Assembly (NCBI GenBank): GCA_045545475.1
Contig: JAZQAZ010000040.1
Location: 9,136 to 73,135, forward strand
DNA from: Clostridia bacterium
GTDB lineage: Bacteria; Bacillota; Clostridia; CAKSNL01; HGM11501
Direction: 5' to 3'
Length of the DNA: 64,000 bases
Shown here: positions 133-27,785 of the stretch, one piece after another
How positions within the stretch are numbered: the stretch's first letter is position 1
Layout: each line of letters starts with the position of its first letter
Notes under the pieces: model-generated
The model's input: only the letters and a program-made list of their open reading frames with translations
Told to the model about the DNA's origin: nothing
The model's database searches: none
Position numbers and translations under genes: made by a program

Positions 133-175
133 TTCGCTTAGGCACTCTGTTTTTATATGCATATATTATACCACA

Positions 176-1591: not shown

Positions 1592-1612
1592 ACTCTTTCT
1601 CCTTAGCTCCCC

Positions 1613-3174: not shown

Positions 3175-3178
3175 CCGA

Positions 3179-3492
3179 TTACACCTTCCCCAACAGCTTA
3201 ACCTTTGAGCTTTTCTTTCTCGTCACTTCCGCCACATCGGTGAAATTAAGCACCGCACTGCTTCCGTCGTCAAGCGAAATCGTAACTCTTCTGAATCCGC
3301 CGTCCATGCAGGCACGAAGATTTGCCTTAAGCCTCTCAACAGTTTCCTCGCTCACAGGATAAAAGCCGTATTCCTCGCACCTCTCGCCAAAAAGCTCCTC
3401 TATTCTCTCAAATCCGCTTCCCTTTTGCTATCAACCTCTACATCAAGAGTCAAAATCTGCCCGCAAAATTCACACGCTCCCGATAAAAACAT
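3179..3492 (-). pseudogene. Frameshifted phage gene
   Basis: MFLSGACEFCGQILTLDVEVDSKREADLRE* stops early; another frame continues ERIEELFGERCEEYGF...KLLGKV* to 3179. Confidence 0.6.
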
Positions 3493-3497
3493 AAAAA

Positions 3498-3836
3498 TCA
3501 CTCCTCTGCAATGTTACCGGTGTCTTCGTTGTTCTCTTTACACTCTGTTCTGTCATTCTGAGCGGAGCGAAGAATCTCTTTCTCCGCCTCATCCAACGAT
3601 ATATCTTCTATCTCCGCCCTTACTTCAAGGCAATACAGATAGTCACCCATATGCTTTTTCTGCTCTTTAAGTAAATCAATACTGCACGAAGGCGTAAAGT
3701 TAAGTGTTTTTGCCTCATACTTAACTACCATTTTGTGAAGCTTTTCGTATCTTATCTTCGCCTGCATATACTCTGCAATAAATCTATCCTTATAGTCCGC
3801 ACTGTTCATCATCTTAACAGTATCTTTCAATTCCAT
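3498..3836 (-). CDS. crAss001_48-like phage protein
   Basis: MELKDTVKMMNSADYKDRFIAEY.Q.KIRYEKL...LLKEQKKHMGDYLYCLEVRAEIE pattern. Confidence 0.7.
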   Translation of the reverse strand: MELKDTVKMMNSADYKDRFIAEYMQAKIRYEKLHKMVVKYEAKTLNFTPSCSIDLLKEQKKHMGDYLYCLEVRAEIEDISLDEAEKEILRSAQNDRTECKENNEDTGNIAEE

Positions 3837-3885
3837 AAAATCAACTTCTTTCTTAAAATCCTTAAACAGTTTTATAAAAATATCA

Positions 3886-4042
3886 TTATACAGATGAGGA
3901 TTTGCACCTCATATAGAATGATTAACACCGCATCCTCGCCTTACGCGACTGCTTTTTCCCTACTCAAGAGGTGTCGGGGGCAGTGGTTCATTCCAGTACT
4001 GTTGCCCCTTTTTCCTGCGTCTACCTATTCCGCCACCATATA
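3886..4042 (-). ncRNA. tRNA-like RNA with ~100-nt insert replacing the anticodon and variable arms
   Basis: Acceptor TATATGG/CTGTATA, Leu-type D arm TGGCGGAATAGGTAGACGC, T arm TGAGG-TGCAAAT-CCTCA. Confidence 0.6.
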
Positions 4043-4205
4043 CCTTAAAATCGTTCTTTTATCATTTACCCGTACCTTCTTTCCTCCAGTCCCGCTCCAT
4101 AGCTCTGAACTTCATCCGGCACCGTTTCCAAGTCTTATTTTTCCTCATCCATCGCCGGCAATAAAACTTATACCTGATTTTCTTAAACATAACCTGCCCT
4201 CACGT

Positions 4206-5522
4206 TCACTTAAACAATTCGTGTGTACCGTCGCACAAAGCCTTTTCTTCGTCTGACATTTCATATCCCAATAGCTCAAGTTTTTTATATACGAAGTCAA
4301 GATTTTCGTTTTTCTTATATGTAGGAAGGCTTGTCCCATACCCCTGATAATAATATCCGTTGTTTTTGTCATCATTGCTCATCGCATAAATCATAAGTGC
4401 AAGTATATTCCCCGGTTCCTTCTCGGCATAATCCTGCAGTTTTTCGTTATCAACTGAATATTTATGCTTGGTATACTTTTCTCCGAGTTTTTCACATAAA
4501 AGTTCTACATTAGCACCGTAAATGTGATGTCCTGTAAGGTCTCTTTCGATAAACTCTCTCAGCCATAAATTCAAAACGCTCTCATACTTTTTCCCGGAAG
4601 AAAACTCACTTATAAATTCTCTTCTCATATGATAAGCCTTCTCCGTCACTTTCCCAAGTGCTGCATTTCGTTCCTCTACCTTAATTTCTTTGGGAGATTT
4701 CTTAGGCTTTTCCGCCTTCTTTTTAGGCTTCTTAACATACAGTCTGTAATTGTTGCTTCTTACGTTCCAAAAGTATTCTTTCCCTTCCTTGACTTTATCG
4801 GAAAAGAATCCTTCTGTATATTCTTCCGCACTTACGGATGCGACTTCCTCATAGTCTCCCGCCCAGGTATAAATAGAATCGTCCTTCTTTGCACTGATTT
4901 TTTTCATCTCGGCTTTAACTTTCGGCATTGTCGCATCAAGCGCCTGCTTTTCAAGTGCCTCTCTGAGTTTCCAGTTAAAATTATTCGTACCCACACATTC
5001 AAGCACTTTGTTTCTTTCTTTTTCATTAACTATGTCGGAAACTTTAATATAATCTTCAAGCTTTCCGCCACGCTCTTCCGCCTGCTGAAACTTCGCCTTG
5101 TCGAGATTTAACAGCTTAAGTCTTCGCTGTACGGTAGACTGAGAAAAACCTATCTTTTCTGAAATCTGCAACTCTGTATCTCCTAGGTCAAGCATCATCT
5201 GTATGCCTTCAGCTTCTTCGTATTTTGTAAGGTCAGACCTTTGCATATTTTCCAGGAGCATTGTCGCTATCTGCTCCTTATAGCTCATCCCTGTCGCCAC
5301 GGCACAAGGTAACTCTTTAAGTCCCGCCGCTTTTGCCGCCGCCAGTCTTCTGTGTCCGATTATAACGGTATATCCGTCCTTTTCAGGAACAACCGTTAAA
5401 TTCTGCATTATACCGCTTCTGGCAACCGAAGCGGTAAGCTCTGTAAGGTCGCCAAGTTCTTTTCTCGGATTGTCTTTGTGCGGCCTCAATAAATCAATAC
5501 TTATATTCTTAATTTCATTCAT
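4206..5522 (-). CDS. ParB/RepB/Spo0J-family phage protein
   Basis: ParBc domain: LRPHKDNPRK, GIMQNLTV, IGHRRLAAA, ENMQRSDL, followed by HTH. Confidence 0.88.
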   Translation of the reverse strand: MNEIKNISIDLLRPHKDNPRKELGDLTELTASVARSGIMQNLTVVPEKDGYTVIIGHRRLAAAKAAGLKELPCAVATGMSYKEQIATMLLENMQRSDLTKYEEAEGIQMMLDLGDTELQISEKIGFSQSTVQRRLKLLNLDKAKFQQAEERGGKLEDYIKVSDIVNEKERNKVLECVGTNNFNWKLREALEKQALDATMPKVKAEMKKISAKKDDSIYTWAGDYEEVASVSAEEYTEGFFSDKVKEGKEYFWNVRSNNYRLYVKKPKKKAEKPKKSPKEIKVEERNAALGKVTEKAYHMRREFISEFSSGKKYESVLNLWLREFIERDLTGHHIYGANVELLCEKLGEKYTKHKYSVDNEKLQDYAEKEPGNILALMIYAMSNDDKNNGYYYQGYGTSLPTYKKNENLDFVYKKLELLGYEMSDEEKALCDGTHELFK

Positions 5523-5525
5523 CGC

Positions 5526-6899
5526 TTAGCCTCTTTCCCTCATATATTTTCTTATATATTTCTTCTTTCGTGCTTCTCTGCAACTCTTGCAGAAGCGGTT
5601 TTCCTTTCGCTCGATAAATGTATCTCCGCATCTTGCACAATACTGTGGCTTTATTCTTAAAAACTCTGTGCAGTCGTCACAGCTCTCGCATTCTTTCCTG
5701 CAGCCAATAATGTCGTCCCAGTGCATACACATATCCTTTTGGAAATAATAATCGTATATTTCTCCGGCATTGCTGCGCTTTACCGCCCAGGCATGGAGTA
5801 TTCCCGCCATAAGCTCCATTTGCTCTTTTGCCAAAACCTTTTCTTCCGGAGGCATTATCCTTAAATGCTTAAGCTTCCTCTCCGGGAGATTATCTCCGAA
5901 TTTACCGTTTCCGACCATAGCACGAACCGCATCTGCATTTTCCGTGAGATAATACCTGTATACAAGCCCTCTTAAAGCTTTCTCGCTACGATCAGGAAGA
6001 TTCAATGCAATGTCCCGAAACTTTTGTCCCTGCTTTATTCCTTCGGTAATTATCTCAAATTCTGCAGCTGTCCATTCCGTATGGTTTTCCGCCTTGATGG
6101 GAGTAGTCTTTATTTTAAGTTCCGAAAGCCGTCTTATAACCGCCCCTTCTGTTCTTTCTACCAAACGTGCAACTTCTTTAAGTCCGTATTCTTTTCTTTC
6201 AACCAGTTGCTTTAAGCGAAAATCTTCTTCCGCAGTCCAAGGTGTCTGCCTGGGTGCCCTGGCATCCCGACGTCGCTTGCCTTTAACCCAGGCAGGTTCA
6301 AAACCTAAAGCGTTCTCTTCAAAATGAGAAAAGTCTAAAAACGCCTGATTTTCTTCGGCCCATTTCCAGAAGTCGTCAAGATAAATAACCTTTACCTTCT
6401 TTTCGCTGAGAGTTTTGTATTTCACCGGGAATCCTCTGTTTTCTACCCAGCTTTTCATCTTGTAACTGTCTGATCCGCTACCTAAACCTAAAGCAATATA
6501 AAGCTGATGACAAGTTATGTAATCGCCCGATTCTAAAAACGGGCCCAGATTAAGCCTGTTTCTCATAACATCGATGGCGTTTTTGCTTCTGCCAAGATGT
6601 TCACATATGGCATTAACCGACTTTACGCCCCAAAATTCCGCCAGGTATTCTTTTTCTTCTTCGCTGCCTTTAACTCCCGCAAAAACAATGGTACCTAAAA
6701 AGTCAATACCGAAAAGCGTCATATTGTAGGGTAAATTGCGAAGTCGCCCTTCTTCATTGCAAATAATCACCAAATCCGTCGCAACCGTAACGGTCTCTAT
6801 ATCACCGCCAACCAACTGCTGAAGACTCTGAATCTCGTTTCTCACAGTTCTAACTTCGGGAGCCTTCCCCGGAACCTTAACAATAACCTTTATCTTCAT
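5526..6899 (-). CDS. DUF3846-like N-terminus fused to Myb/HTH-repeat phage protein with C-terminal Zn finger
   Basis: N-terminal LQQLVGGDIETV..IICNEEGRL; WTAEED and WTAAEF repeats; C-terminal CARC...CKSC. Confidence 0.6.
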   Translation of the reverse strand: MKIKVIVKVPGKAPEVRTVRNEIQSLQQLVGGDIETVTVATDLVIICNEEGRLRNLPYNMTLFGIDFLGTIVFAGVKGSEEEKEYLAEFWGVKSVNAICEHLGRSKNAIDVMRNRLNLGPFLESGDYITCHQLYIALGLGSGSDSYKMKSWVENRGFPVKYKTLSEKKVKVIYLDDFWKWAEENQAFLDFSHFEENALGFEPAWVKGKRRRDARAPRQTPWTAEEDFRLKQLVERKEYGLKEVARLVERTEGAVIRRLSELKIKTTPIKAENHTEWTAAEFEIITEGIKQGQKFRDIALNLPDRSEKALRGLVYRYYLTENADAVRAMVGNGKFGDNLPERKLKHLRIMPPEEKVLAKEQMELMAGILHAWAVKRSNAGEIYDYYFQKDMCMHWDDIIGCRKECESCDDCTEFLRIKPQYCARCGDTFIERKENRFCKSCREARKKKYIRKYMRERG

Positions 6900-6917
6900 T
6901 TCTTCACTTACTTCCCT

Positions 6918-7100
6918 TCAATTTTTGTAGGGGCTGATGCCCACATTAGCCCGCTTCTTCACTTTTCCTTTCAGCACTTTAATAATCTGCTGTAAAATCT
7001 TAATCTTCTCCTTAAGCGATTTGTTCTCTGCGCTGAGCTTCCTGTTTTCTTCCATAAGCTCCCCGCACACCGCCTCAGGCGTATCATATCCGGTTAACAT
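6918..7100 (-). CDS. Small coiled-coil phage protein
   Basis: ATG after GGCGG RBS, coupled to the upstream stop. Confidence 0.5.
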   Translation of the reverse strand: MLTGYDTPEAVCGELMEENRKLSAENKSLKEKIKILQQIIKVLKGKVKKRANVGISPYKN

Positions 7101-7315
7101 TATTCCGCCTTCTTCTCTTTCCAGTAATCCATAACAACTATGTATGTAAGAAACACCAGCACCGGCACCAACGCTTCCCCGCCTATGCCTTCGCTCGTTC
7201 CTCTTTCCATTATAGCGAACTCTCTGCAAGGAATGTAAACCGCCACAGCCAAAACCACCATAAGTATAAAACCGATTACATCAAATATAATTTCTTCACG
7301 TTTTTCCTTCTTCAT
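7100..7315 (-). CDS. Small two-TM membrane phage protein
   Basis: Two hydrophobic segments around ERG..GIGGEAL. Confidence 0.65.
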   Translation of the reverse strand: MKKEKREEIIFDVIGFILMVVLAVAVYIPCREFAIMERGTSEGIGGEALVPVLVFLTYIVVMDYWKEKKAE

Positions 7316-7560
7316 TTTTCTCTCCTTATTCCTTCATCACAATAGCCGTTTTCGTTGCATAAAGCATTCTTACGTATGCAAAACATAGCCGCCTTGCCCT
7401 TAAAAGAATACTGTTCTTCGTCAATCGGTACCCGGCTCACGCAATCCTTGCACCTTACAACTAAAACTAAGTCCTTATGCTGAAAACAACTATGCATGGA
7501 ATCGTTGTGAGCATCACAATATTCCGTTCCTTCATGTTTGCATTCATTACAATTTGCCAT
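7312..7560 (-). CDS. Cys-rich phage protein
   Basis: MANCNECKH...VVRCKDC...FC...YC; GGGAG RBS. Confidence 0.6.
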   Translation of the reverse strand: MANCNECKHEGTEYCDAHNDSMHSCFQHKDLVLVVRCKDCVSRVPIDEEQYSFKGKAAMFCIRKNALCNENGYCDEGIRREK

Positions 7561-7578
7561 TTTTCTCCCGCCTTTCTT

Positions 7579-7735
7579 TAAGGGCTCCCTTGTGTAAAGC
7601 CCCGCTGTTCTCGTCACTCCACCCTCAAGGCTCCCCTGTGTAAGGGGAGCTGTCATCGGAGATGACTGAGGGGTTGTCGTTCCTCGCTCGCTCCGGCTGT
7701 CAGCCTTTGGCTGACTGAGGGATTGTTACCACCCT
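7579..7735. repeat. Cluster of clostridial REP-like palindromes (GGCTCCCCTGTGTAAGGGGAGCTGTCA...TGACTGAGGG)
   Basis: One full and two partial copies with internal hairpins GCTCCCC/GGGGAGC and GTCA/TGAC. Confidence 0.65.
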
Positions 7736-7997
7736 CCAAAAACTCCTCCGCTTCTTCTCTTGTAGCAAAAAGCTTGTCCGCTCCTAAGTACTCAATCCGC
7801 TTCACGTCGCCCTGCACTCTCTGACAGATGCAAAATAAATGTCCCAGCTCGTCAAGCTTGTATCCCACCACAACCCAGTCGGTTATAATGTTGGTCTTGT
7901 CTCCTCTATCATTAATAAGGGAATACACCGCCTGAAAAACTTTCTGTCCGACATAAAATGGTATGTCAAGTGTAATTCTCATAAATTCTCTCCTCAT
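7653..7997 (-). CDS. Hypothetical phage protein (C-terminus runs into REP-like repeat)
   Basis: IPFYVGQKVF...KLFATREEAEE phage-type motif. Confidence 0.55.
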   Translation of the reverse strand: MRREFMRITLDIPFYVGQKVFQAVYSLINDRGDKTNIITDWVVVGYKLDELGHLFCICQRVQGDVKRIEYLGADKLFATREEAEEFLEGGNNPSVSQRLTAGASEERQPLSHLR

Positions 7998-8011
7998 TGT
8001 CGCTCATTTTG

Positions 8012-8136
8012 GTTTCACTCACTAAAACCCTTTTCGGGTTTTATCACCGATTATCACCAAGTAAATGCTCCGCAAAACTTGGTTGCATCGGTGTCGTTCG
8101 CAAAACTTCGTTCCGTTTTTTCTTTGTTGAAAAAAC
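8012..8136. repeat. Structured dispersed repeat, copy B
   Basis: AAAAccc-ttttc-gggTTTT; caccgat..ccaagt-AAATGCTCCGCAAA-acttgg..atcggtg; AAAACTTCGTTCCG. Confidence 0.85.
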
Positions 8137-8137
8137 T

Positions 8138-8563
8138 TCACTTACCAATCACCTTAACCTCTGTGCCTATTTCTTCAGCTGTAAATGTAAAATTGATATT
8201 GGGAATAATAAATGCACTCGCATCGGGAGGCGTTATCCTCTTGCAGACATATGCCGCCTCGCAAACTTCAAAGCGTGTTCCGCCCTTATCTTCAACTATG
8301 TACCCCTTCTCGGGAAAATCAGCCTTCGGAAACAGCGGCACTACACCGCTATCATCATGAGCGCCCACGCTGTCATTCTGAGCCTTCAGGCGAAGAATCT
8401 CTGCGCTCATTTCAAAAATTCCCTCTGCAATATACTGCTGCTCCGGAATACCCTTCGCCTTTATTCGCTCCGCAAACTCAATCAACTCTCTATATTTCTC
8501 CACGAGTAAATCTCCTCCCGAGAAAATCTTCAAAGCTTCCGCTCCGCTTTTCTGCATCTTCAA
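8138..8563 (-). CDS. Hypothetical phage protein (start uncertain)
   Basis: ORF in co-oriented early operon. Confidence 0.45.
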   Translation of the reverse strand: MKMQKSGAEALKIFSGGDLLVEKYRELIEFAERIKAKGIPEQQYIAEGIFEMSAEILRLKAQNDSVGAHDDSGVVPLFPKADFPEKGYIVEDKGGTRFEVCEAAYVCKRITPPDASAFIIPNINFTFTAEEIGTEVKVIGK

Positions 8564-8780
8564 GCCTTTCTTTTATCTCTCCAACCGTAACTCCGGTTCC
8601 TTTCCATAACGGAGACTGCTCTTCTGTCACCAGTTTGTATATCATTGAAGCCATATCCAGCCTCATATCCGCAGGGCTGTTCTCCACCAAAAGACTTATG
8701 GCCATTGCAATGTCAGTAACAATATCAGTCGCCTCACCGCTTACAATAAACCTTCCTTCGTTTCTGTCAATCTTTATCAT
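8490..8780 (-). CDS. Hypothetical phage protein
   Basis: AGGAGG RBS; directly follows xis-like gene. Confidence 0.55.
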   Translation of the reverse strand: MIKIDRNEGRFIVSGEATDIVTDIAMAISLLVENSPADMRLDMASMIYKLVTEEQSPLWKGTGVTVGEIKERLEDAEKRSGSFEDFLGRRFTRGEI

Positions 8781-8781
8781 C

Positions 8782-8997
8782 TTATACTATCCTCCTGAAA
8801 TTAAAATCCTTCTTTATAACGATATGCTCCACACCACCGGGACGGTTTTCGTAATCATCCACTGCCTTGCTTGTTACACGCCAGGCACCTCCAACCTTAA
8901 AGCCCTTAAGCTTTCCTTGAGCAAGCTCCTCATAAATCACGCGGATAGAAATCCTCCACCGCTTCGCCAGCTCATTAACCGTAAATACCGCCTGCAT
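8782..8997 (-). CDS. Excisionase-like HTH_17 DNA-binding protein
   Basis: FTVNELAKRWRIS...IY...GKLKGFKVGGAWRV. Confidence 0.8.
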   Translation of the reverse strand: MQAVFTVNELAKRWRISIRVIYEELAQGKLKGFKVGGAWRVTSKAVDDYENRPGGVEHIVIKKDFNFRRIV

Positions 8998-9015
8998 AAA
9001 ATCACGCTCCTTTTA

Positions 9016-9133
9016 TTGACATTTTTCAAACACCGTGTTATAATAACTACGTTATTAAATTTCCCATTTGTTCATAGTGAACAAAAATTTCCTCAAGCAC
9101 TCACTGCGCCAACAGTGGGTGCTTTTATTTTTT
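9016..9133 (+). ncRNA. Promoter-driven small RNA antisense to the cro-xis transcript (putative)
   Basis: TTGACA-17-TATAAT at 9016..9044, no RBS-led ORF, terminator AAGCACTCACTG-CGCCAA-CAGTGGGTGCTTTT. Confidence 0.6.
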
Positions 9134-9165
9134 CTCGGACTCGCTCTGCTCATAAAAAAGCCTCC

Positions 9166-9342
9166 TTAAAATAAATCATTTACCGTACAATCAAGAATTT
9201 TTGCCAATATAGGAAGCTTGTCTGTCCTCGGCGTTGATTCTCCAGTTTCCCATTTCGCGACAGTGCTTCTATCTATATTGAGTTCCTTAGCAATATCTTC
9301 TTGTTTTAATTTTTTCTTTTCTCTCAGTTCTTTTATCTTCAT
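9166..9342 (-). CDS. Cro-like XRE HTH repressor (58 aa, not in ORF track)
   Basis: Manual translation MKIKELREKKKLKQEDIAKELNIDRSTVAKWETGESTPRTDKLPILAKILDCTVNDLF; GGAGGTG RBS. Confidence 0.9.
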   Translation of the reverse strand: MKIKELREKKKLKQEDIAKELNIDRSTVAKWETGESTPRTDKLPILAKILDCTVNDLF

Positions 9343-9388
9343 TCCATCACCTCCAAAAAGTGCACCAATTTCATTTTTTAATTATAAT

Positions 9389-9504
9389 ATGAATTATATT
9401 CACATTATAATTCCTGTTTTTACCTTTGTCAATACTTTTTGTGAATTTTATTCATATTTTTTTGTTCGAAAAATATTTACAAAGTGAATTTTATTCACTA
9501 TAAT
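9389..9504. promoter_or_regulatory. Lysis-lysogeny switch: divergent promoters with three 15-bp operators
   Basis: RTGAATTWTATTCAY at 9389, 9441 and 9484; minus-strand TTGACA-17-TATAAT (9432..9404); plus-strand TTTACA-17-TATAAT (9476..9504). Confidence 0.8.
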
Positions 9505-9525
9505 GATATTAAAGGTGGTGATATT

Positions 9526-9867
9526 ATGTTTTCAGCTATCTTAAAAAAACTGAGAACTGAAAAGAAAATTACTCAAAAAAAATTAGCAGAGCAGCTTTTT
9601 GTAGACTGTTCTACGGTTACAAAATGGGAGACTGGAAAAGCCTTCCCCGACTTTAAAAAGCAACAAATGTTAGCAGAAATATTTGATGTCTCTATAGACT
9701 ACCTCTTTGGTCGAGAAGACAAAAAAGAAAAGCCCGCCGAAAACGACGAGCTTGAAAATAAAAATGTTAAATTTATAGGCAGGGACGGAACAGTCAAGTT
9801 CAAAAAGCTTTCTCCTGAAATGATTGCTATGCTTGAACAGCTTCCCGATTCAGGCGATGATCTTTAA
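9526..9867 (+). CDS. CI/ImmR-like XRE HTH repressor
   Basis: LKKLRTEKKITQKKLAEQL...TVTKWETGKAFPD...IFDVSIDYLFG; divergent from cro. Confidence 0.88.
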   Translation: MFSAILKKLRTEKKITQKKLAEQLFVDCSTVTKWETGKAFPDFKKQQMLAEIFDVSIDYLFGREDKKEKPAENDELENKNVKFIGRDGTVKFKKLSPEMIAMLEQLPDSGDDL

Positions 9868-10399
9868 TAAAATTCTTAAATCGTTTTTTAACCTTTCGTT
9901 CCAAAGGATGTAAATAGAATTTGTTCCGCTCCGTAAGGACTTTAAAACGTTTAAGTCTTATCTCCGCTGCAGCCTTGCTTACATCACATAAAAGCATAAT
10001 GTCCTCTGCCGTTTGTACATTGCATTCCTTAAGTATGCAGGCAGGCATAAGAAGCCTGGATGCAAAAACATCCGCTTCAACTTCTCTGTCTTCTACCTCT
10101 GTTTCATTATGGCCGAGTAATATGTGCCCTATTTCGTGAGCAATGGTAAAGCGTTGCCTTTTAGAATTTACACTGTCATTGTAAAATATGTATGCTTTTT
10201 TTCCGATAACAACAGAAAACCCATCACCTACTTTCGGAACTCTCGGAGCTTCAGAATATTTAATAGCCTTAATTCCAAGCTTCTTGCATAAAGGAATTAC
10301 TTTTACCGGTAATTCGCTTATATGCTCTTTAACCATTATCTCCCACGCTAAATTACGGGAGAATTTATATCGTGTGTATTTCATACACATCACCTCCAC
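9827..10399 (-). CDS. ImmA/IrrE-family metallopeptidase
   Basis: RQRFTIAHEIGHILLGH (HExxH), EVEADVFASRLLMP. Confidence 0.9.
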   Translation of the reverse strand: MEVMCMKYTRYKFSRNLAWEIMVKEHISELPVKVIPLCKKLGIKAIKYSEAPRVPKVGDGFSVVIGKKAYIFYNDSVNSKRQRFTIAHEIGHILLGHNETEVEDREVEADVFASRLLMPACILKECNVQTAEDIMLLCDVSKAAAEIRLKRFKVLTERNKFYLHPLERKVKKRFKNFIKDHRLNREAVQA

Positions 10400-10518
10400 C
10401 TCTCATAATAAGGTGGAATATGACAAAATTCTACAGGAATATATTGTAAAAAGTTTTTGAATCCCGAGGAAAAATAAATATAAAAGCAGTTGAATTTCTC
10501 GTAAAATAAGGAGTTATA

Positions 10519-12840
10519 ATGGACACTATCAGGTCTTATCTTGCAAATAGTGCTAAAACATATTATGAATATTTAACCCAGAACGACAAAGGAGTTTCCC
10601 GCATAAAAGTCAGAAGCATTTCTATTATCCAGCAAAACAAAATTAATTTATCATTGGATTCTGAACTTTCTGATATATCTTTCTTGAAAGCTCTTATTGC
10701 AGACGGCAAAAAGCTCTCTTTAGATGCTTGTGAGATTTCGCTTATATCTCCGATGATTATTTCACTTGAAGCCGAAATTGCTTTGATTAACAGGCTTATG
10801 GATGCTAAAGGAATATATTTAATTATCGATTTTCGTATTTTGGTTAAAAGAATTCAAGAAAAATATGAAGAATCAGCCGAGACACTGAAACTTCCGAATA
10901 ATCCTCCCGCACTCAAATTTCCACTAAAAACTTTTGGGCAAGTCCCATTCACCGTTTCACAGCAGGAAGCAATAAATAATATTTTTGCTTCTCCTATTTC
11001 TTATATATGGGGCGGAGCAGGAAGCGGAAAAACTCGTTTTGTACTTGCCTATTCAATATTAGCCTATCTTTTATCAAAAAGAAGGGTTCTTCTTTGTGCA
11101 CCCACAAATATTGCTTTGGAAAATGCATTAAAAGAGATTATTCCTATCGCCGTATCGTACGGGATTGCACCGTCACAAATTTATCGTCACGGAAAGCCCT
11201 CTGCAGATTTTACCGCTAAATATCCTGAATCCTGCAACAATGCTATAAGTAAAGAATTAAAAAATGCACAAAGTACAAAAACACGTTTAGAGCGACTGCT
11301 CCGTGCTGAACAAAAATTGCAATGGCTTTTTGAACTTAATGAAATTATAGATTCTGCAATTACACTCTCTTCCGAGATTAAGCGTAAAACCGCTTTGATT
11401 GATGCGATTTCAATAAAACAAAACTTAAATCTCCAAGCCATATTATCTAAAGAAACGGCTATTGCTATACTGAACGGCAAAATTAATGCACAAAAAAGAA
11501 GCCTTCAATTCAAAATTAAAAGTTTCTTTAATAAAAAACATTATACTCAAATTTTATCTCCCATGCTTAATGAACTTGGAAAGCTCAACTCTGAGCATAT
11601 AGATTTAACCGAAGAAAAACATTCTCTAACCAAAGAATCGGAAGTGATAAAGAAAGATATCCTACATATTCTGCGACAACTGCAGGACATACATAACAAA
11701 ATAAAACATCGGGCATCAAATTTAAAAATCAATGTGAATTTGTTGAAATTGGATATTCTTCAAATCCGCATACACAAACGTATACATTACGGAAAAGATT
11801 ATATTGGAAAAGAGAAAATTGCTCTTGCTCCGCTTAATCTGCTGACAACCGAAGATATAAAAAGAAATATAGAACAGACTGATAAATTGATTGCCGATTT
11901 AACTGCAAGGCATGAGGAAAAAAATAAAGCTATACTTCTTCACGGATGCACTCTTGATGGGTTAGTATCTATATCTGATGACTATATCTTTTCCCATGCT
12001 TTTTTGGATGAAGCATGTTATTCTTGCATCGCAAAGACATCTCTGTTGTTTTTCCTTAAATGTCCTGTTACATATCTCGGAGACCATATGCAGCTCCCTC
12101 CTGTGTCAGAAATTAATGATATCGAAAAACTTGGCCGTAATGAAGGAGAGCTTCTTTGCTTATGGGAACAAAGCGGCATATATTCAAGTTCTATTTTTGA
12201 AAAAAACTTTTCAAAAATATATGATGATTATATAAATGGCACAGAATCCCTTCCTGGTATGCTTTCTATTTCTGTTCTTCCTGAGACTCACCGCTTCGGA
12301 AAAACACTTTCTTATATTTTGAATAAGTATGTATATAAAAACGGTTTTACATCTATAAAAGAAAACGAAACTTTTATTTCAGTAATACACGCTTCTAAAA
12401 AAACTCCGTGCAAAGACTACAGGGAAAATATTGACGAAGTAAATGCCATAAAAAATTATCTAAATAAAAATCATACTATTAATGACTTTGCAATACTAAC
12501 TCCATATGTAAAGCAAGCCAAGCTCTTAAAAAATAGTTTATCTAAAGAATATACTCAAAACATTTTAACCGTTCATAAATCTCAAGGACAAGAATGGGAT
12601 ACGGTTATTTTGAGCGTATCAGACACTTCCAATAAGTTTTTTACCGATGTAAATAACCCTTCTTCGCGTGGAAAACAGCTCCTAAATACAGCTATAAGCC
12701 GTGCAAGAAAAAATTTAATTATTGTCTGTGATACTGATTACTGGGCTGGCATTAACAATCAGCTGATTTCAGAATTAATACGTATTTCTATACCCACACA
12801 AACGAAAGGAGGCCCGCAATGGCAAGAAAAGGACTCTTAA
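10519..12840 (+). CDS. SF1 (Upf1/DNA2-like) helicase with coiled-coil insert; prophage cargo
   Basis: GGAGSGKT, CAPTNIAL, LDEA, GDHMQLPP, THRF, LTPY, TVHKSQGQEWD, NTAISRARK. Confidence 0.85.
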   Translation: MDTIRSYLANSAKTYYEYLTQNDKGVSRIKVRSISIIQQNKINLSLDSELSDISFLKALIADGKKLSLDACEISLISPMIISLEAEIALINRLMDAKGIYLIIDFRILVKRIQEKYEESAETLKLPNNPPALKFPLKTFGQVPFTVSQQEAINNIFASPISYIWGGAGSGKTRFVLAYSILAYLLSKRRVLLCAPTNIALENALKEIIPIAVSYGIAPSQIYRHGKPSADFTAKYPESCNNAISKELKNAQSTKTRLERLLRAEQKLQWLFELNEIIDSAITLSSEIKRKTALIDAISIKQNLNLQAILSKETAIAILNGKINAQKRSLQFKIKSFFNKKHYTQILSPMLNELGKLNSEHIDLTEEKHSLTKESEVIKKDILHILRQLQDIHNKIKHRASNLKINVNLLKLDILQIRIHKRIHYGKDYIGKEKIALAPLNLLTTEDIKRNIEQTDKLIADLTARHEEKNKAILLHGCTLDGLVSISDDYIFSHAFLDEACYSCIAKTSLLFFLKCPVTYLGDHMQLPPVSEINDIEKLGRNEGELLCLWEQSGIYSSSIFEKNFSKIYDDYINGTESLPGMLSISVLPETHRFGKTLSYILNKYVYKNGFTSIKENETFISVIHASKKTPCKDYRENIDEVNAIKNYLNKNHTINDFAILTPYVKQAKLLKNSLSKEYTQNILTVHKSQGQEWDTVILSVSDTSNKFFTDVNNPSSRGKQLLNTAISRARKNLIIVCDTDYWAGINNQLISELIRISIPTQTKGGPQWQEKDS

Positions 12841-13916
12841 CCGCCACACTCACGCTTCCCGGCGGAAAGAGAAAATATATCTACGGAAAAACCAAAGCCG
12901 AGCTTGAAGAAAAACTTCTTGAAGCCAAACTTCTGCTTAAGGCAGGAGTGAATCCCGGAAACGATGTAACCTTTTATGAATATGCTCAGGCTTGGTACAA
13001 TTCCTATAAGAAGCCTTATCTCAGAGATACAAGCCGGGAAAATCTTCTCTACACCCTCAATAGCTATATAGTCCCGTACCTTTCTTCTGTAAAGATGTCA
13101 GACGTAACTCCGATGCATATTCAGCAAATTCTTTCCTCGGTATCGGAAAAGAGCCGAAGCCTTAATAATAAAGTGCTGCAGACATTAAGACACATATTTG
13201 ATACAGCTGTAGATAATAACGTGATAGCCAAAAGCCCGGTTCCCTTAAAGCAAAAAACCGCCGGCAAGAAAACTGAAGAAAAAAAGCCCCTTACAAAGGA
13301 GCAGGAAAATATACTTATAGACGCTTTGGAAGGAACACGTGCAAGCCTGTTCGTCCTCATAGGCTTAAAAACAGGTATGAGACGCGAAGAAATCCTCGGA
13401 CTTAATTGGGACTGTGTTGACCTTGAAAAACGCCTGATTCACGTCAAGAGAACGCTATTGCTTACTGACAAGGCTTCAAAGATTTCCGAAACTACAAAAA
13501 CGGATTCGGGAAACCGCTTAATCCCCATTCCTGACTCACTTCATAAAATTCTTACAGAAGAAAAAGAGAAATCGAATTCAGAATGGCTTTTTACAACACA
13601 GGAAGGAAATCCTTTAACCCGCTCTTCTTTCAGACGGATGTGGACCGCTGTAGAAACCCGTTATGTGAAAAATAAGACGGAACTCAATGAAAAGCACCGA
13701 CCGGAAGTAAAAAGAATAATAAGCTTCCACGTTACACCACATATACTTCGCCATACATATATAACAAGACTTTTCGAAGCAGGGCTCGATGTCAAACAGG
13801 TTCAATACCTCGCAGGACATAAAACTCCGGATATAACTATGAAAATTTATATTCATTTCTGTGAGGAAACTCGAAGAGATTCCACTTTTGATATGGCAAA
13901 GGCAGCTATCGGCTAA
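12819..13916 (+). CDS. int: Tyrosine recombinase / phage integrase
   Basis: TGMRREEILGL (R), TKT (K), HILRHTY (HxxR), LAGH, IYIH (Y); N-terminal RKYIYGKT arm-binding region. Confidence 0.95.
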   Translation: MARKGLLTATLTLPGGKRKYIYGKTKAELEEKLLEAKLLLKAGVNPGNDVTFYEYAQAWYNSYKKPYLRDTSRENLLYTLNSYIVPYLSSVKMSDVTPMHIQQILSSVSEKSRSLNNKVLQTLRHIFDTAVDNNVIAKSPVPLKQKTAGKKTEEKKPLTKEQENILIDALEGTRASLFVLIGLKTGMRREEILGLNWDCVDLEKRLIHVKRTLLLTDKASKISETTKTDSGNRLIPIPDSLHKILTEEKEKSNSEWLFTTQEGNPLTRSSFRRMWTAVETRYVKNKTELNEKHRPEVKRIISFHVTPHILRHTYITRLFEAGLDVKQVQYLAGHKTPDITMKIYIHFCEETRRDSTFDMAKAAIG

Positions 13917-13919
13917 GCT

Positions 13920-13939
13920 GTACCACACGCGTACCACAC
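13920..13939. repeat. Direct repeat GTACCACAC x2, probable integrase arm-type sites
   Basis: Immediately after int stop, between int and the tRNA att region. Confidence 0.55.
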
Positions 13940-14005
13940 ATAAAGAGGTATAAAGCATTAGAAAGCGTTCAAAATACGCTTATTTATTTTTTACTTCGAA
14001 AACAC

Positions 14006-14052
14006 AAAAAGACCGCAACCCCTTGTAACACAAGGATTTGCGGTCTTTTTGT
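14006..14052 (-). terminator. Terminator downstream of tRNA-Lys
   Basis: AAAAAGACCGCAA...TTGCGGTCTTTTT inverted repeat. Confidence 0.7.
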
Positions 14053-14053
14053 T

Positions 14054-14129
14054 TGGTGACCCATCGGAGATTCGAACTCCGGACACCTTGATTAAAAGTC
14101 AAGTGCTCTGCCAACTGAGCTAATGGATC
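14054..14129 (-). tRNA. tRNA-Lys (UUU); probable prophage attachment site
   Basis: GATCCATTAGCTCAGTTGG...CTTGA-CTTTTAA-TCAAG...GTTCGAATC...CCA. Confidence 0.97.
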
Positions 14130-22407: not shown

Positions 22408-22902
22408 ATGGAAAAATGGGATATACTGAATTCTGCCGGAGAACCTACCGGAGAAACAGTAGTAAGATCGGCCAACGCATTAAAGGAAGGCCAGTATCAC
22501 CTGGTGGTGCATATCTGGGTTATAAACGATAAGAAGAAAACACTCATTCAAAAGCGAAGTGATACGGTGAATATTCTCCCGGGCATTTGGGCAACCACAA
22601 GCGGATCTGCTTTAAGCGGAGAAACGGAATTGGATGCCGCTAAGAGAGAGCTTTCCGAAGAGCTTGGGATTAAATCCGGCGACGAGGAGCTGATACTTAT
22701 AAAGAAGTATCGAGGCAGAAACAACTTCGTTTACGTTTATGCCGTACATAAAAATGTAGGAATCTCTGAAATCACAATGCAGGCGGAAGAGGTTCAGGCA
22801 GTAAAGTGGGTCACTTCTGATGAACTTTCGGATATGGTACATAAAAAGCAGTTTCATCACTATAACTATATGGCTGAGCTTTATGAATATATGAATAAAT
22901 AA
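22408..22902 (+). CDS. NUDIX hydrolase
   Basis: Nudix box GSALSGETELDAAKRELSEELG. Confidence 0.9.
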   Translation: MEKWDILNSAGEPTGETVVRSANALKEGQYHLVVHIWVINDKKKTLIQKRSDTVNILPGIWATTSGSALSGETELDAAKRELSEELGIKSGDEELILIKKYRGRNNFVYVYAVHKNVGISEITMQAEEVQAVKWVTSDELSDMVHKKQFHHYNYMAELYEYMNK

Positions 22903-22929
22903 ACGGTTGGGTGTTCCCCAACCGTTTTT
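22901..22929 (+). terminator. Intrinsic terminator after secA-prfB-nudix
   Basis: AAACGGTTGGG-tgttc-CCCAACCGTTTTT. Confidence 0.8.
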
Positions 22930-22932
22930 CTG

Positions 22933-23043
22933 TTGACCGTTCTCTTTTTTCGTGCTATACTGTTTTCAGAGGTTGACTCATTTTTATATCTGAAGCAGCA
23001 TTTTTGCTGTGAGGTAGGTAGGAGTCAGCCTCTTTTCTCATTT
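22933..23043 (+). ncRNA. Promoter + hairpin small RNA cassette 1 (putative)
   Basis: TTGACC-17-TATACT with TG; RNA AGAGGTTGACTC...GAGTCAGCCTCT followed by T-tract. Confidence 0.6.
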
Positions 23044-23045
23044 AT

Positions 23046-23073
23046 GACACCTTGACTTTTAATCAAGTGCTCT
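23046..23073. other. 28-bp copy of tRNA-Lys anticodon arm with inverted 7-nt loop
   Basis: GACACCTTGA-CTTTTAA-TCAAGTGCTCT versus 14082..14109 GACACCTTGA-TTAAAAG-TCAAGTGCTCT. Confidence 0.8.
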
Positions 23074-23076
23074 TTC

Positions 23077-23198
23077 TTGACAAATTTAAATAAATCTGCT
23101 ACAGTATATGTAGTAGTTGAAATGTTTTTTGTGGAGCCGCCGCTACGAGTTTTCTCGAAAGTGCGTCCTCCAACATTATCAGCTACTTTTTTCATTTC
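23077..23198 (+). ncRNA. Promoter + hairpin small RNA cassette 2 (putative)
   Basis: TTGACA-17-TACAGT with TG; RNA AGTAGTTGA...TCAGCTACT followed by T-tract. Confidence 0.6.
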
Positions 23199-23202
23199 CG
23201 CC

Positions 23203-23237
23203 AAATAAAAAATCCCCTTATCGGGGATTTTTTATTT
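23203..23237. terminator. Bidirectional terminator
   Basis: AAATAAAAAATCCCC-ttatc-GGGGATTTTTTATTT. Confidence 0.8.
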
Positions 23238-25221
23238 AATCAAGTTCTTTTTTTCCTGTATAAAGTTCGTAATAGCGTCCCTTTAATTTGAGAAGCTCGT
23301 CGTGAGTTCCCTCTTCCATAATTTCGCCCTTTTCAAGAACAATAATTTTATCCGCATTTCTTACGGTGGAAAGACGGTGAGCAATTACAAAGGTGGTACG
23401 CTCCTTCATAAGGCGATCCATACCGTGCTCGATGTGCATTTCCGTACGGGTGTCGACGGAGCTTGTCGCCTCGTCAAGCACTAAAATCGGAGCCTTACTT
23501 ATTGCCGCACGGGCAATGTTAAGTAGCTGCCTCTGACCCTGGGAAAGGTTTTGACCATCTCCCATAATTTCCGTTTCGTAACCCTTTGAAAGCCTCATAA
23601 TAAAGCTGTGGGCACTGGCGGTTTTTGCCGCTGCAATAACATCTTCATCCGTGGCATCAAGTCTGCCATATCGGATATTTTCCATAATTGTACCGGAGAA
23701 AAGATGGGTATCCTGAAGCACCATGGCAATGTTTTCACGAAGGGATTCCCTCGTATATCCCTTAATCGGTACACCGTCAATGGTTATCTCTCCGCTTCCC
23801 ACATCGTAAAATCTGTTGATAAGATTTGTGATGGTTGTCTTTCCCGCACCGGTTGACCCTACAAAGGCAACCTTTTCACCGGGACGTGCCACAACGGAAA
23901 GATTTTTAAGGATAAGCCTTTCTTCCGTGTAGCCGAAGTTTACGTTTTTAAGGATAACCTCGCCCTTTATTTCGCCCATTTCTACTGCATCAGTACTGTC
24001 TGCTATCTCCGGAGAGGTATCCATAACCTTAAACACACGCTCCGCACCGGCAAGAGCGGAGAACACATTACTCATTTGCATGGAGATCATATTAATAGGC
24101 TGGGCAAACTGCCTGGAATAGTTGGCAAATACCGTAAGTGCACCGGGGGTGAATCCGCTTGTTATCATCATAATACCGCCGATTCCCACAGTAATGGCAT
24201 AGGTAATCTGGCTTGTATTTCCCATAACGGGCCCCATAATACCGCCGTAAAACTGAGCTTTAAACTGAGTGTCACGAAGATCATTGTTGAGAAGCAAAAA
24301 CTCATCCTCGCATACGCTTTCGTGGTTAAACACCTTAACAACCTTCTGACCTGTTACGCTTTCCTCAATATAACCGTTAACCGCACCCAATGATGCCTGC
24401 TGACCTTTGTAGAAGCGACGGCCTCTTTTAGATATTGCCGCTCCGCCGAAAACAAAGATTGGCACAAATAAAACGGTAACCATTGTAAGTACCCAGTTGG
24501 TTGTTATCATGAATACAAATGTACCAACAAGGGAGATAGAGCCTGAAATAAGCGATACAAGAGAGTTGTCAAGCATCATACCGATGTTGTCAACGTCGTT
24601 GGTAAAACGGCTCATAACGTCGCCTGTACTCTCGTTGTCAAAATACTTTAACGGGAGGGACTGAAGCTTTGCAAAAAGCTCGTTTCTTATCCTCTCCAAA
24701 GAGCCTTGGGTGATGGAAAGCATAAGTCTCGACTGAAAATATCCGGATAAAGCACCCACAAGATAAATTGTAAGAAGAATAACAATTCCCGCTATCATGT
24801 AGGTTAATACCTCGTAAAGCCTGCCTTCGGCAAAGATTCCCGAAAGAAACTCCGTTTTGGTAAGCGAGGTAATAATTTTGTCTGCAAACTCCTCAAGAGC
24901 ACTTACTTCAACCTCTGCATCAGGCGATGCCGTAAGGGCAATTTTGTCTATTATGGGAGCCAGCATGAATGAACCGAAAAGTGCTGTCAACGTATGAGTA
25001 ACCATAAGAAGCATAACAAGTGCAAGCTTGAACTTATAGCTTGCCATATACTTCCAGAGTCTCTTAACTGTTTTACTTGTATCCTTAGGCTTTCCTCCGA
25101 GACCTCTCGCCATAGGTCCACCTCTGCCCGGGCCACCCGGTCCTCTTCCCTGAGCACCCGTAGCCATATTATTATGGCCGGTGTTATACTGCTTTTTAAG
25201 TTCGTCAATATTTCTTGCCAT
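23236..25221 (-). CDS. ABC exporter ATP-binding/permease subunit
   Basis: TMD + GSTGAGKT, LSQGQRQ, LDEAT, AHRL. Confidence 0.95.
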   Translation of the reverse strand: MARNIDELKKQYNTGHNNMATGAQGRGPGGPGRGGPMARGLGGKPKDTSKTVKRLWKYMASYKFKLALVMLLMVTHTLTALFGSFMLAPIIDKIALTASPDAEVEVSALEEFADKIITSLTKTEFLSGIFAEGRLYEVLTYMIAGIVILLTIYLVGALSGYFQSRLMLSITQGSLERIRNELFAKLQSLPLKYFDNESTGDVMSRFTNDVDNIGMMLDNSLVSLISGSISLVGTFVFMITTNWVLTMVTVLFVPIFVFGGAAISKRGRRFYKGQQASLGAVNGYIEESVTGQKVVKVFNHESVCEDEFLLLNNDLRDTQFKAQFYGGIMGPVMGNTSQITYAITVGIGGIMMITSGFTPGALTVFANYSRQFAQPINMISMQMSNVFSALAGAERVFKVMDTSPEIADSTDAVEMGEIKGEVILKNVNFGYTEERLILKNLSVVARPGEKVAFVGSTGAGKTTITNLINRFYDVGSGEITIDGVPIKGYTRESLRENIAMVLQDTHLFSGTIMENIRYGRLDATDEDVIAAAKTASAHSFIMRLSKGYETEIMGDGQNLSQGQRQLLNIARAAISKAPILVLDEATSSVDTRTEMHIEHGMDRLMKERTTFVIAHRLSTVRNADKIIVLEKGEIMEEGTHDELLKLKGRYYELYTGKKELD

Positions 25222-25224
25222 GAC

Positions 25225-26958
25225 TCACACCTCCTTCCCCGACATCTGCGAGGTATAAATTTCCTTATATTCCTCGTTGGATGAAAGAAGCTCGTCATGA
25301 GTTCCGACACCGGTAATCACGCCGTCGTCCATAACAATTATTTTATCAGCTTCCATAACAGAAGAAATTCTCTGTGCAATAATAATTTTGGTAGAATCCG
25401 GAATTTCTGCCTTAAGTGCCGCCCTTATCTTTGCCTCAGTCGCCGTATCAACAGCACTGGTGGAATCATCGAGTATCAAAATTTTCGGCTTTTTTATTAA
25501 AGCTCTTGCAATGCAAAGTCTCTGTTTCTGACCTCCGGATACGTTCACACCGCCCTGCTCAAGCTCCTTTTCATAGCCTTCAGAGGAAGCTTCGATAAAT
25601 CCTCTGGCCTGAGCACTTTCACTTGCCTTTACAATATCTTCATCGGTGGCGTTTTCATCGCCCCATAATAAATTATCACGAATAGTACCCGAGAATAAAA
25701 TGTTTTTCTGAAGCACCATACCAACGCCGTCTCGTAAGTTTTTAAGACTGTATTCCGATACCGGCACACCGTCAACCAAAACTTCTCCCTCATCGGGATC
25801 GTACAGTCTCGGAATCATGGAAACCAACGTGGTTTTACCGCAGCCGGTGGAACCGATTATACCCACCGTCTCCCCTGCTTCTATTTTCACATTGATGTTT
25901 TTAAGCACTTCGTCGGGACTGTCCTTGTAATAGCGGAAGGACATATCACGAAATTCCACTTCTCCACGTGTAACTTTAAGTTCGGGATATTTTGCATCAT
26001 CGTCAGTAATATCCGACTTTTCATCCAGAACCTCTTTTATTCTTCTTGCGGAAGCAAGAGCACGGGATGAATGCATAAGCATCATTGTTACCATCATTAA
26101 TGATGATAAAATCTGAGTAACGTATGTAATAAAGGAAGAAAGGTCGCCTATAGGCATGGGAAAATCCACATCAAGCACCATTTTTCCGCCAAACCACAAA
26201 ACTGCAATGGTAGTAAAGTTCATAAATATGGTCATTACGGGGCCCATAAAAATCATAACTTTAACTGCAGACATATTCGCTTCCTTAAGATCGGCATTGG
26301 CGTTTCCAAACTTTTCGATTTCATGCTGTTCACGGACAAAGGATTTTACAACACGGACATTTGTGATATTCTCCTGCACCGTTGAGTTAAGCTTATCTAC
26401 CTTGACCTGCATTTTTCCGAATCTGGGAAAACCTGTTCTTATGATGAATATAACAGAAACAAGCATAAGAGGAATTGTAACAGCTAAAACCACCGCAAGA
26501 GATGGCTTTAACCTTATTGCCATAATAAGTGCACCGATAAGCATACCGGGCGAACGAAGGAACATACGAAGCAGCATATTCACAAAGTTCTGCACCTGGG
26601 TTACGTCGTTGGTAAGACGGGTAACAAGGGAGCCGGTTGAAAATTTGTCAATATTGGCAAAGGAAAAGCCCTGTACCCTTTTATAAATATCCTGTCTCAA
26701 ATCTGCCGCAAAATTAACCGACGCCTTTGCTCCGAAATATGCACCGCCGACACCGCCTGCCATCATAATGAGGGCAAGACCAATCATACAAAGTGACATT
26801 TCAATGGAAAAGCCTATACCCTTTGCAACGCTTTCATTGATAATTCCGGCAAGAAAGCGAGGCATAAAAACTTCGCCGATAACCTCGATAATCATACAAA
26901 GAGGTCCCAAGATGAAATACAATAGATACGGTTTTATGTATTTAGTCCACCGTTTCAT
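25225..26958 (-). CDS. ABC exporter ATP-binding/permease subunit (degenerate-site partner)
   Basis: GSTGCGKT, VSGGQKQ, ILDDST, IAQR. Confidence 0.95.
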   Translation of the reverse strand: MKRWTKYIKPYLLYFILGPLCMIIEVIGEVFMPRFLAGIINESVAKGIGFSIEMSLCMIGLALIMMAGGVGGAYFGAKASVNFAADLRQDIYKRVQGFSFANIDKFSTGSLVTRLTNDVTQVQNFVNMLLRMFLRSPGMLIGALIMAIRLKPSLAVVLAVTIPLMLVSVIFIIRTGFPRFGKMQVKVDKLNSTVQENITNVRVVKSFVREQHEIEKFGNANADLKEANMSAVKVMIFMGPVMTIFMNFTTIAVLWFGGKMVLDVDFPMPIGDLSSFITYVTQILSSLMMVTMMLMHSSRALASARRIKEVLDEKSDITDDDAKYPELKVTRGEVEFRDMSFRYYKDSPDEVLKNINVKIEAGETVGIIGSTGCGKTTLVSMIPRLYDPDEGEVLVDGVPVSEYSLKNLRDGVGMVLQKNILFSGTIRDNLLWGDENATDEDIVKASESAQARGFIEASSEGYEKELEQGGVNVSGGQKQRLCIARALIKKPKILILDDSTSAVDTATEAKIRAALKAEIPDSTKIIIAQRISSVMEADKIIVMDDGVITGVGTHDELLSSNEEYKEIYTSQMSGKEV

Positions 26959-27550: not shown

Positions 27551-27613
27551 ATGTCATTCTTCCATCGGAGATTTTCCAGTCAGAGACGAAAATCTCCGAT
27601 GGAAGAATCTCAC
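27551..27613. repeat. Long palindrome of the TGTCATTCT...GAAGAATCT REP-like type
   Basis: ATTCTTCCATCGGAGATTTTC...GAAAATCTCCGATGGAAGAAT; related ends at 3551 and 37021. Confidence 0.6.
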
Positions 27614-27616
27614 TTC

Positions 27617-27740
27617 TTGACAAATTCAAATAAATCTGCTACAGTATATGCAGAGGTTAGATTTTTCGATGTGTATTCTGAAGTCGGATTTGTTCCGGCT
27701 TTAAGGACACCTGAAATGTCAACCTCATTTTTTATTTCCC
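27617..27740 (+). ncRNA. Promoter + hairpin small RNA cassette 3 (putative)
   Basis: Promoter nearly identical to cassette 2; RNA AGAGGTTAG...TCAACCTC followed by T-tract. Confidence 0.6.
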
Positions 27741-27785
27741 ACCTTGCATTTCACACTTAAAAAACGCCCGCTTCCGGGCGTTTTT

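Follow-up and report, generated by a model that had tools for sequence, protein, structure and literature searches.

tRNA-Lys is an object of phage–host conflict, as in the cases of PrrC and PARIS, and tRNA mimics or spare tRNAs are used in such conflicts. HP1, at tRNA-Leu, is an example of an anticodon-centred attB. Attachment sites of this kind are recognised as a major class, with 2083 islands in the Islander table (PMC4383910), and their layout at the anticodon has been discussed (bioRxiv 10.1101/2020.11.02.365908). Hairpin template switching keeps both flanks of a hairpin and reverse-complements the loop only, and the loop-only inversions ascribed to it include 7-8-nt loops in bacterial rRNA (PMC8794818). 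Small inversions between short inverted repeats have been described in plastomes (PMC6824564). The 28-mer analysed here, which would be a natural meeting of tRNA-targeted integration and hairpin template switching, lies in the window, that is, the whole stretch of 64,000 nt of clostridial DNA that was analysed.

We found that positions 23046-23073 of the window read GACACCTTGA-CTTTTAA-TCAAGTGCTCT, and that segment 14082-14109 of the tRNA-Lys(UUU) gene reads GACACCTTGA-TTAAAAG-TCAAGTGCTCT on the plus strand. The flanks (10 + 11 nt) were identical at 21/21 bases and in the same orientation, and the central 7 nt were the exact reverse complement; once a loop flip is allowed, the copy is perfect (28/28). 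An earlier note on this DNA had reported this relation and its abrupt end on both sides, and both statements were borne out by the sequence comparison, since local alignment returned pieces of 10, 17 and 11 nt only. The source of the copied sequence (14054-14129, minus strand; ARAGORN, and Rfam tRNA at 68.4 bits) is the single tRNA-Lys(UUU) gene of the genome, the other tRNA-Lys having the anticodon CUU. Counted from ARAGORN's anticodon position, the 28-mer corresponds to tRNA positions 21-48 in gene orientation. It takes in the D stem (3' strand), base 26, the anticodon arm, whose 7-nt loop is reverse-complemented, and the variable loop (pattern search, alignment and flip scan). Within it, the plus strand at 23051-23067 is identical over 17 nt to the anticodon arm as read on the sense strand (stem of 5 bp, loop CTTTTAA; pattern search) and is likely an attB core in reverse. 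When the sense of the 28-mer was reversed, just 2 of the 5-6 flank bases matched on each side.

A pattern with seven free central bases and up to three mismatches occurred at two places only in the window and at none in 100 shuffles. The 17-nt anticodon arm has two copies in the window, one on each strand (expectation 0.06 with up to two mismatches allowed), and the complete 2.74-Mb assembly likewise contains two. A flip scan then covered each of the genome's 35 tRNA genes; in it, centres of 4-9 nt were reverse-complemented and 7-nt flanks were retained. Its 14,387 flipped-centre variants matched solely 23046-23073 (two overlapping matches), and controls with centres reversed but not complemented gave no match in the genome; chance is therefore excluded for the 28-mer. 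Judged from its sequence, the 28-mer is a genuine ectopic copy of the middle part of the resident tRNA-Lys(UUU) gene. A tRNA gene or pseudogene is ruled out, as ARAGORN called none there and Rfam gave no tRNA match on 22850-23300 at E values up to 10. The 28-mer is not an intrinsic terminator either, with a stem of 5 bp, a fold of -4.1 kcal/mol and no call there in the terminator scan. The hairpin of the 17-nt arm folded no better than shuffled sequence (z -1.36).

The usual displaced att fragment was also rejected, because the copy spans positions 21-48 only and lies 8.9 kb from the tRNA gene, between a NUDIX gene and an ABC operon. Several short tRNA-derived fragments in the genome adjoin their tRNA genes, and no other tRNA has a distant internal copy. 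As a separate observation, 22-23-nt exact copies of the ends of tRNA-Ser(GCU) and tRNA-Pro(CGG) occur, each twice, a few hundred bases from the tRNA gene (window 49943-50190, i.e. G000:C40:59078 and 59302, where G000 is the genome of the window; G000:C6:5021 and 5119). These look like stacked att relics.

Downstream of secA and prfB, the 28-mer lies in a 333-bp spacer (22903-23235) that separates the NUDIX gene (22408-22902, plus strand) from an ABC-transporter pair (23236-26958, minus strand). The left edge of this islet is a two-way terminator-like hairpin after the NUDIX gene (22901-22927; terminator scan), and the right edge is a 15-bp perfect inverted repeat, the terminator of the ABC operon (23203-23237), where 40 nt show 100% conservation in both G002 and G003. 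Only these two edge terminators are common to the sister species. In G003 the spacer measures about 830 bp and contains an orphan 142-aa ORF (L005 730-1510), whereas in G002 it reaches about 3.5 kb and contains several orphan ORFs; the sequences compared were window 22903-23235, L005 730-1510 and L062. Made up of imported pieces, the spacer is a mosaic that differs between species. The 28-mer sits at a seam of this mosaic, 6 nt past the T run of cassette 1 and 3 nt ahead of the -35 hexamer of cassette 2, with a small-RNA gene (cassette 1) on one side and a 127-bp remnant of a polyvalent-protein gene on the other. The earlier note had placed it between two sRNA cassettes; this holds for cassette 1, which resembles a small-RNA gene, while cassette 2 proved to be a polyvalent-gene remnant carrying an antisense structured RNA.

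The earlier note had named an assembly chimera as a possible refutation. Contigs from other samples and genomes of relatives were compared. Logan contigs from three runs of three studies covered 23046-23073 without any listed difference inside the 28-mer: X1 (record 2) covered 22811-23344 and differed from the window elsewhere at 7 bases, X2 (record 9) covered 22932-23176 and X3 (record 17) 22935-23192, each with 2 differences elsewhere. As the 28-mer was unchanged in contigs from three other studies, an assembly chimera is ruled out; as these contigs vary elsewhere, the 28-mer exists in slightly different strains. Its identity across the three samples fits recency and equally fits constraint, and the samples cannot distinguish the two because their divergence is roughly 1%. 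An un-flipped copy at the locus was found in no sample contig and no relative compared, with the proviso that Logan contigs are blind to rare variants and a minority un-flipped form is possible. The islet-spanning contig of X1 was without 26 nt of the NUDIX terminator hairpin (window 22906-22931). In run X7 no contig lay over 22936-23226, and two contigs matched the flanks (22600-22935 and 23227-23500) and then diverged from the window; they never join across the spacer and were not counted as absence of the islet.

The earlier note had asked whether the 28-mer is conserved beside such cassettes in relatives, and no such conservation was found: among 40 relatives searched, no spacer match spanned the 28-mer. 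The 17-mer was held by 8 of 13 family relatives, in tRNA-Lys only, and its two copies in G003 were two contig ends of one split tRNA-Lys gene. In public collections, where records from the window's own genome may be excluded, the exact flipped 28-mer had no match in genome_contigs or metagenome_contigs, the flipped 23-mer none in viral_contigs, and an ABC-terminator pattern meant to gather strains of the NUDIX-ABC locus none in metagenome_contigs.

We hypothesized, at a probability of about 0.45, that the 28-mer is a neutral, templated patch, that hairpin template switching flipped its loop, and that it is by accident a potential reverse-oriented secondary attB. A short stretch would have been copied from tRNA-Lys or att DNA while the pieces of the islet were joined, and a replication template switch across the 5-bp palindromic stem would have turned the loop over, the 28-mer being a neutral filler of the seam. 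The accidental outcome would be a plus strand with a perfect 17-bp anticodon arm and the probable attB core of the prophage in reverse, which could serve as a secondary attachment site. This reading agrees with what template switching leaves behind, as the loop is exactly reverse-complemented between perfectly pairing stem arms and the flanks are unchanged. It also agrees with the uniqueness of the 28-mer and its absence from relatives, with a spacer that varies between species and with remnant homology that stops 1-3 nt away; no RNA gene was called at the 28-mer, and its hairpin is weak by itself. Nothing suggests that the 28-mer is used or under selection. Just upstream of a second copy of the cassette-2 promoter, a hairpin with a stem of about 21 bp (27553-27609; repeat search and alignment) may be debris of the same type of mutation, and it was counted for this reading because inverted duplications too are products of template switching. 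On the other hand, no strain or relative carries an un-flipped copy at the locus, so that the inversion step is inferred rather than observed, and a 5-bp stem is short for template switching. The reading also leaves the transfer of 28 bp of tRNA-Lys DNA over 9 kb without explanation, and the other tRNAs of the genome are without a comparable distant internal copy.

The most serious rival is that the 28-mer is a working secondary or decoy attB, its 17-bp arm (23051-23067) being bound by the tRNA-Lys-specific integrase of the prophage or of similar elements; it would permit reverse-oriented integration in a harmless intergenic place or titrate the integrase. We consider this unlikely. The tyrosine integrase gene (12819-13916, plus strand; Pfam Phage_integrase at 1.4e-27, Phage_int_SAM_3 and Phage_int_M) does adjoin the 3' end of tRNA-Lys, as the earlier note had premised, and phage-type genes lie upstream of it (YopX, a crAss001_48-like protein, ParB-like, DUF3846, an HTH/ImmA pair and an SF1 helicase). 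The HTH/ImmA-type pair and the 773-aa SF1 helicase beside the integrase gave weak MkoA/GajB-like PADLOC matches and are possibly defence cargo. Since the integrase is without close relatives (none in viral_contigs; closest match in the phage collection 35.4% identical), no characterised att site could be borrowed.

The second att end, for which the earlier note had proposed a search, was found on a separate contig as a perfect 55-bp copy (G000:C25:10590-10644) of window 14044-14098, when the genome was searched with the tRNA region. The prophage at tRNA-Lys is spread over at least two contigs (window 1-14098; G000:C25:10590-12144). The identity block runs from 10 nt beyond the 3' end of the tRNA through the anticodon loop and stops exactly at the 5' edge of the loop, and the copy on C25 is flanked by the native tRNA-Lys downstream terminator, as in the sister species, on one side and by a tail-like phage gene on the other. 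This layout supports an anticodon-centred site, of which it would be expected. Because the block ends at the loop edge, the 28-mer holds the whole attB-like core: its loop CTTTTAA (23056-23062, plus strand) is the tRNA-sense loop of the att block, which is the case only when the site is read reversed.

For a working secondary attB, then, the 7-nt loop would be the likely crossover segment, and this overlap and both 5-bp inner arms are identical to attB. The rival also gains from the weight of anticodon-centred sites (the 2083 Islander islands; PMC4383910), from the report that 19 bp around the anticodon loop are sufficient for ICEAfe1 (bioRxiv 10.1101/2020.11.02.365908) and from a spacer that accumulates foreign DNA. 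However, no element is joined to the site in the genome or in the X1-X3 contigs, and the site is absent from all 13 family relatives searched. In the reversed reading, only 2 of the 6 outer bases on each side agree with attB, which would matter insofar as the integrase reads that far out. The reconstructed attP arm past the loop is unlike the attB arm, a reservation on the anticodon-centred layout as well, and because of this the crossover could be elsewhere in the 55-bp block, for example in the T loop; the attP-junction pattern had no match in viral_contigs. The tRNA-gene orientation of the outer flanks is likewise left unaccounted for.

Two rearrangements that the earlier note had raised did not survive comparison. 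An inversion of the ~9-kb segment 14092-23062 is contradicted by G003, which keeps tRNA-Lys and the ABC operon at the same spacing and orientation (17-mer at 16-32 and spacer at 8882 in G003:C489; 23222 and 32038 in G000:C40), and flipping this segment would destroy the sole tRNA-Lys(UUU) gene. Nor is the 28-mer the arm-swapped product of recombination between two sites, for each of its arms agrees with the intact tRNA gene and the loop alone is turned; recombination between the tRNA-Lys site and the 28-mer would give palindromic arms and a broken tRNA-Lys.

The neighbour on the right of the 28-mer bears on another possibility. Cassette 2 (23077-23200, plus strand; fold, alignment and covariation) consists of a promoter-like site (TTGACA, 17 nt, TACAGT) and a structured RNA of about 90 nt, antisense to a 43-codon remnant of a polyvalent-protein gene (23076-23204, minus strand; tblastn 81% over 43 aa, 3.6e-15), namely its LPD3/ART-PolyVal linker. 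Remnant homology ends in ...FVK(K) at window 23074-23076, leaving 1-3 nt to the 28-mer. We rejected a minus-strand protein gene of 55-59 aa (23025-23204), which has no Pfam or PHROG match and only 43 homologous codons, these being internal to a gene of more than 1400 aa. By tblastn the assembly contains no full copy of the polyvalent gene, only the 43-codon piece and a 14-codon piece (minus strand, 27616-27657).

The conserved core of cassette 2 was found at 27 loci in genome_contigs. The opposite strand was open across the whole ~830-nt locus in 6 of the 27, and several more had long open stretches with the same protein sequence. All 3 full-frame homologues scanned with Pfam carried LPD3 and ART-PolyVal domains; MuF_C, LPD3 and ART-PolyVal occur together in the 1457-aa product of one full gene, and one IMG/VR viral contig has the same polyvalent-gene arrangement. 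In a 26-sequence alignment, from which 2 of the 27 loci were left out (Chloroflexota and Saccharibacteria records, G+C-rich and without the flanking stem), compensatory changes occurred in 16 of 29 predicted pairs and 93% of cells paired; 11 invariant pairs are uninformative, the loci having been chosen by their conserved core. The covariation score was 0.375, against 0.186 in shuffles (0 of 500 reached 0.375) and 0.03-0.11 with slid partners. U-G and G-U pairs are frequent, which suits only the plus strand. The core is retained in two reading frames of the host gene, by an inner hairpin of 11 or 12 nt. Stand-alone copies with a broken reading frame still have both promoter hexamers (-35 and -10) as well as the T run. 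Rfam found only tRNAs in the whole window at gathering level and only noise in both spacers in E-value mode, leaving the cassette-2 RNA without a family. Cassette 2 is thus a unit of antisense RNA preserved in a cut-down remnant of a phage- or mobile-element-type gene. The antisense RNA occurs at loci L031-L057 and L061, with stand-alone remnants in chromosomes of gut Clostridia MAGs. Its possible roles are regulation of the host gene or, where the copy is chromosomal, an effect on incoming elements.

Based on this neighbour, the 28-mer could be a relic of the att region of a former tRNA-Lys-targeting element that arrived with the polyvalent-gene remnant, the att region itself having held an inverted copy of the loop core. 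We regard this as distinctly unlikely, even though the 28-mer adjoins what is left of a gene that phages and mobile elements typically carry. At the hairpin before the second remnant (27553-27609), both arms hold a 12-mer equal to tRNA-Lys gene 14061-14072 (E 0.012, suggestive only), which falls inside the att block and so within the segment duplicated by att sites. The same remnant lay within ~250 nt of a tRNA gene at 2 of 25 loci (L054 85-161 and L056 70-161, at tRNA-Arg CCG and tRNA-Ser GCU), which hints that remnants gather at integration hot spots. Against an att relic, the match spans tRNA positions 21-48 and stops short of the tRNA 3' end that displaced att fragments normally reach, the 28-mer includes the arm that is missing from the attP of the present prophage, and a nearby integrase and a second att copy are both absent. 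In G041 an intact polyvalent gene stands alone among housekeeping genes on a contig other than that of tRNA-Lys. A linkage of the polyvalent gene to tRNA-Lys elsewhere was rejected, as the two are on different contigs in both G041 and G043.

The two cassettes also suggest a role in cis. Cassette 1 (22933-23040, plus strand; terminator/promoter scan and fold) has a promoter-like site (TTGACC, 17 nt, TATACT) and a hairpin RNA of about 75 nt with a T run at its end; its RNA folds at -31.9 kcal/mol (z -5.2), and the T run has an interruption (TTTTCTCATTT). Intergenic sequence of G009 matches cassette 1 at 87% identity over 76 nt; three sequences of the cassette-1 RNA aligned poorly. The G009 homologue (L004 about 1290-1600, minus strand) lies in a gene-free stretch of ~700 nt, which holds two promoter-plus-RNA units with a near-identical promoter and different RNA bodies. 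In the window, a second copy of the cassette-2 promoter (34/35 bases) is fused to a cassette-1-like RNA (27614-27745, plus strand; repeat search, fold and tblastn), the resembling RNA following the promoter at 27650-27745. On the minus strand, this promoter copy is the 14-codon piece from the polyvalent-gene family.

The 28-mer might accordingly be a cis element of these cassettes, a small hairpin or a block of AT-rich sequence between -36 and -63 of the cassette-2 promoter that acts as an insulator after the weak cassette-1 terminator, as an UP-like element or as an operator. Its place, 6 nt past the one cassette and 3 nt ahead of the -35 hexamer of the other, would suit this, and the other copy of the promoter is likewise directly preceded by a hairpin. 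Nevertheless, we find it improbable: the terminator scan made no call, the fold was no better than shuffles, homologous cassettes at 25 other loci are without such an upstream hairpin, and the role would not need identity to a tRNA.

Transcription of the 28-mer by read-through from cassette 1 would turn it into a tRNA-Lys mimic, either a decoy for nucleases or modification enzymes directed at tRNA-Lys or an RNA that pairs with tRNA-Lys. Some read-through is plausible because of the interrupted T run, the 17 nt equal to the tRNA anticodon arm are on the plus strand, which is that of both cassettes, and in a modelled read-through transcript a small hairpin is predicted to form between the two RNA structures. 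However, a decoy needs the 17-mer only, and the other 11 bases, in the flanks, match in an orientation that does not suit an RNA mimic, pointing to a mutational origin. ARAGORN and Rfam found no tRNA-like RNA at the site, which is absent from relatives; no AAA_13 (PrrC/RloC-type) gene was found in the 95%-complete genome, and no anticodon nuclease is among the prophage genes beside the integrase. The nuclease decoy of the earlier note is thus very improbable. To the widest proposal, that the islet is a chromosomal set of RNA genes aimed at mobile elements, with an antisense RNA captured from the polyvalent gene and a transcribed free-standing tRNA-Lys(UUU) stem-loop that soaks up nucleases or modification enzymes, or whose DNA diverts integrases from the essential tRNA gene, we give hardly any credence.

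Under the preferred reading of a neutral patch with a template-switched loop, the 28-mer would show how a perfect pseudo-attachment site can originate by accident outside a tRNA gene. Should the integrase be able to use the site, this would be a reverse-oriented 'safe' landing site of natural origin, useful to gauge how much of a tRNA gene integrases read. The antisense RNA in polyvalent genes is the more promising lead, being covarying, conserved at the nucleotide level across two frames, present as stand-alone chromosomal pieces and without an Rfam family found.

Compared with tRNA mimics of the PrrC and PARIS conflicts, the 28-mer shares a perfect tRNA-Lys(UUU) anticodon stem-loop sequence on the plus strand. 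Unlike them, it is without a full tRNA fold, lies in a chromosomal spacer and not in a phage, and has no cognate nuclease found in the genome. Displaced tRNA fragments at island ends are, like the 28-mer, short, exact, tRNA-derived and outside the tRNA gene; they are co-oriented, reach the 3' (or 5') end of the tRNA and adjoin it, whereas the 28-mer is an internal piece 9 kb away, between housekeeping genes and with its loop inverted. The likeness to an anticodon-centred attB, as described for Islander class 'A' (PMC4383910) and ICEAfe1 (bioRxiv 10.1101/2020.11.02.365908), lies in the 7-nt loop within a palindromic stem, at which the att block of the resident prophage ends. The 28-mer differs from it in being outside a tRNA gene, in having its loop reversed relative to the outer flanks and in having nothing integrated. 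With the template-switch loop inversions described in PMC8794818 it has in common a loop that is the exact reverse complement between intact stem and flanks; those inversions were seen in place in orthologous sequences, whereas here the inverted form is ectopic and no un-inverted state was found at the locus. The 28-mer is a combination of known footprints, namely tRNA-derived debris and the inversion of a hairpin loop.
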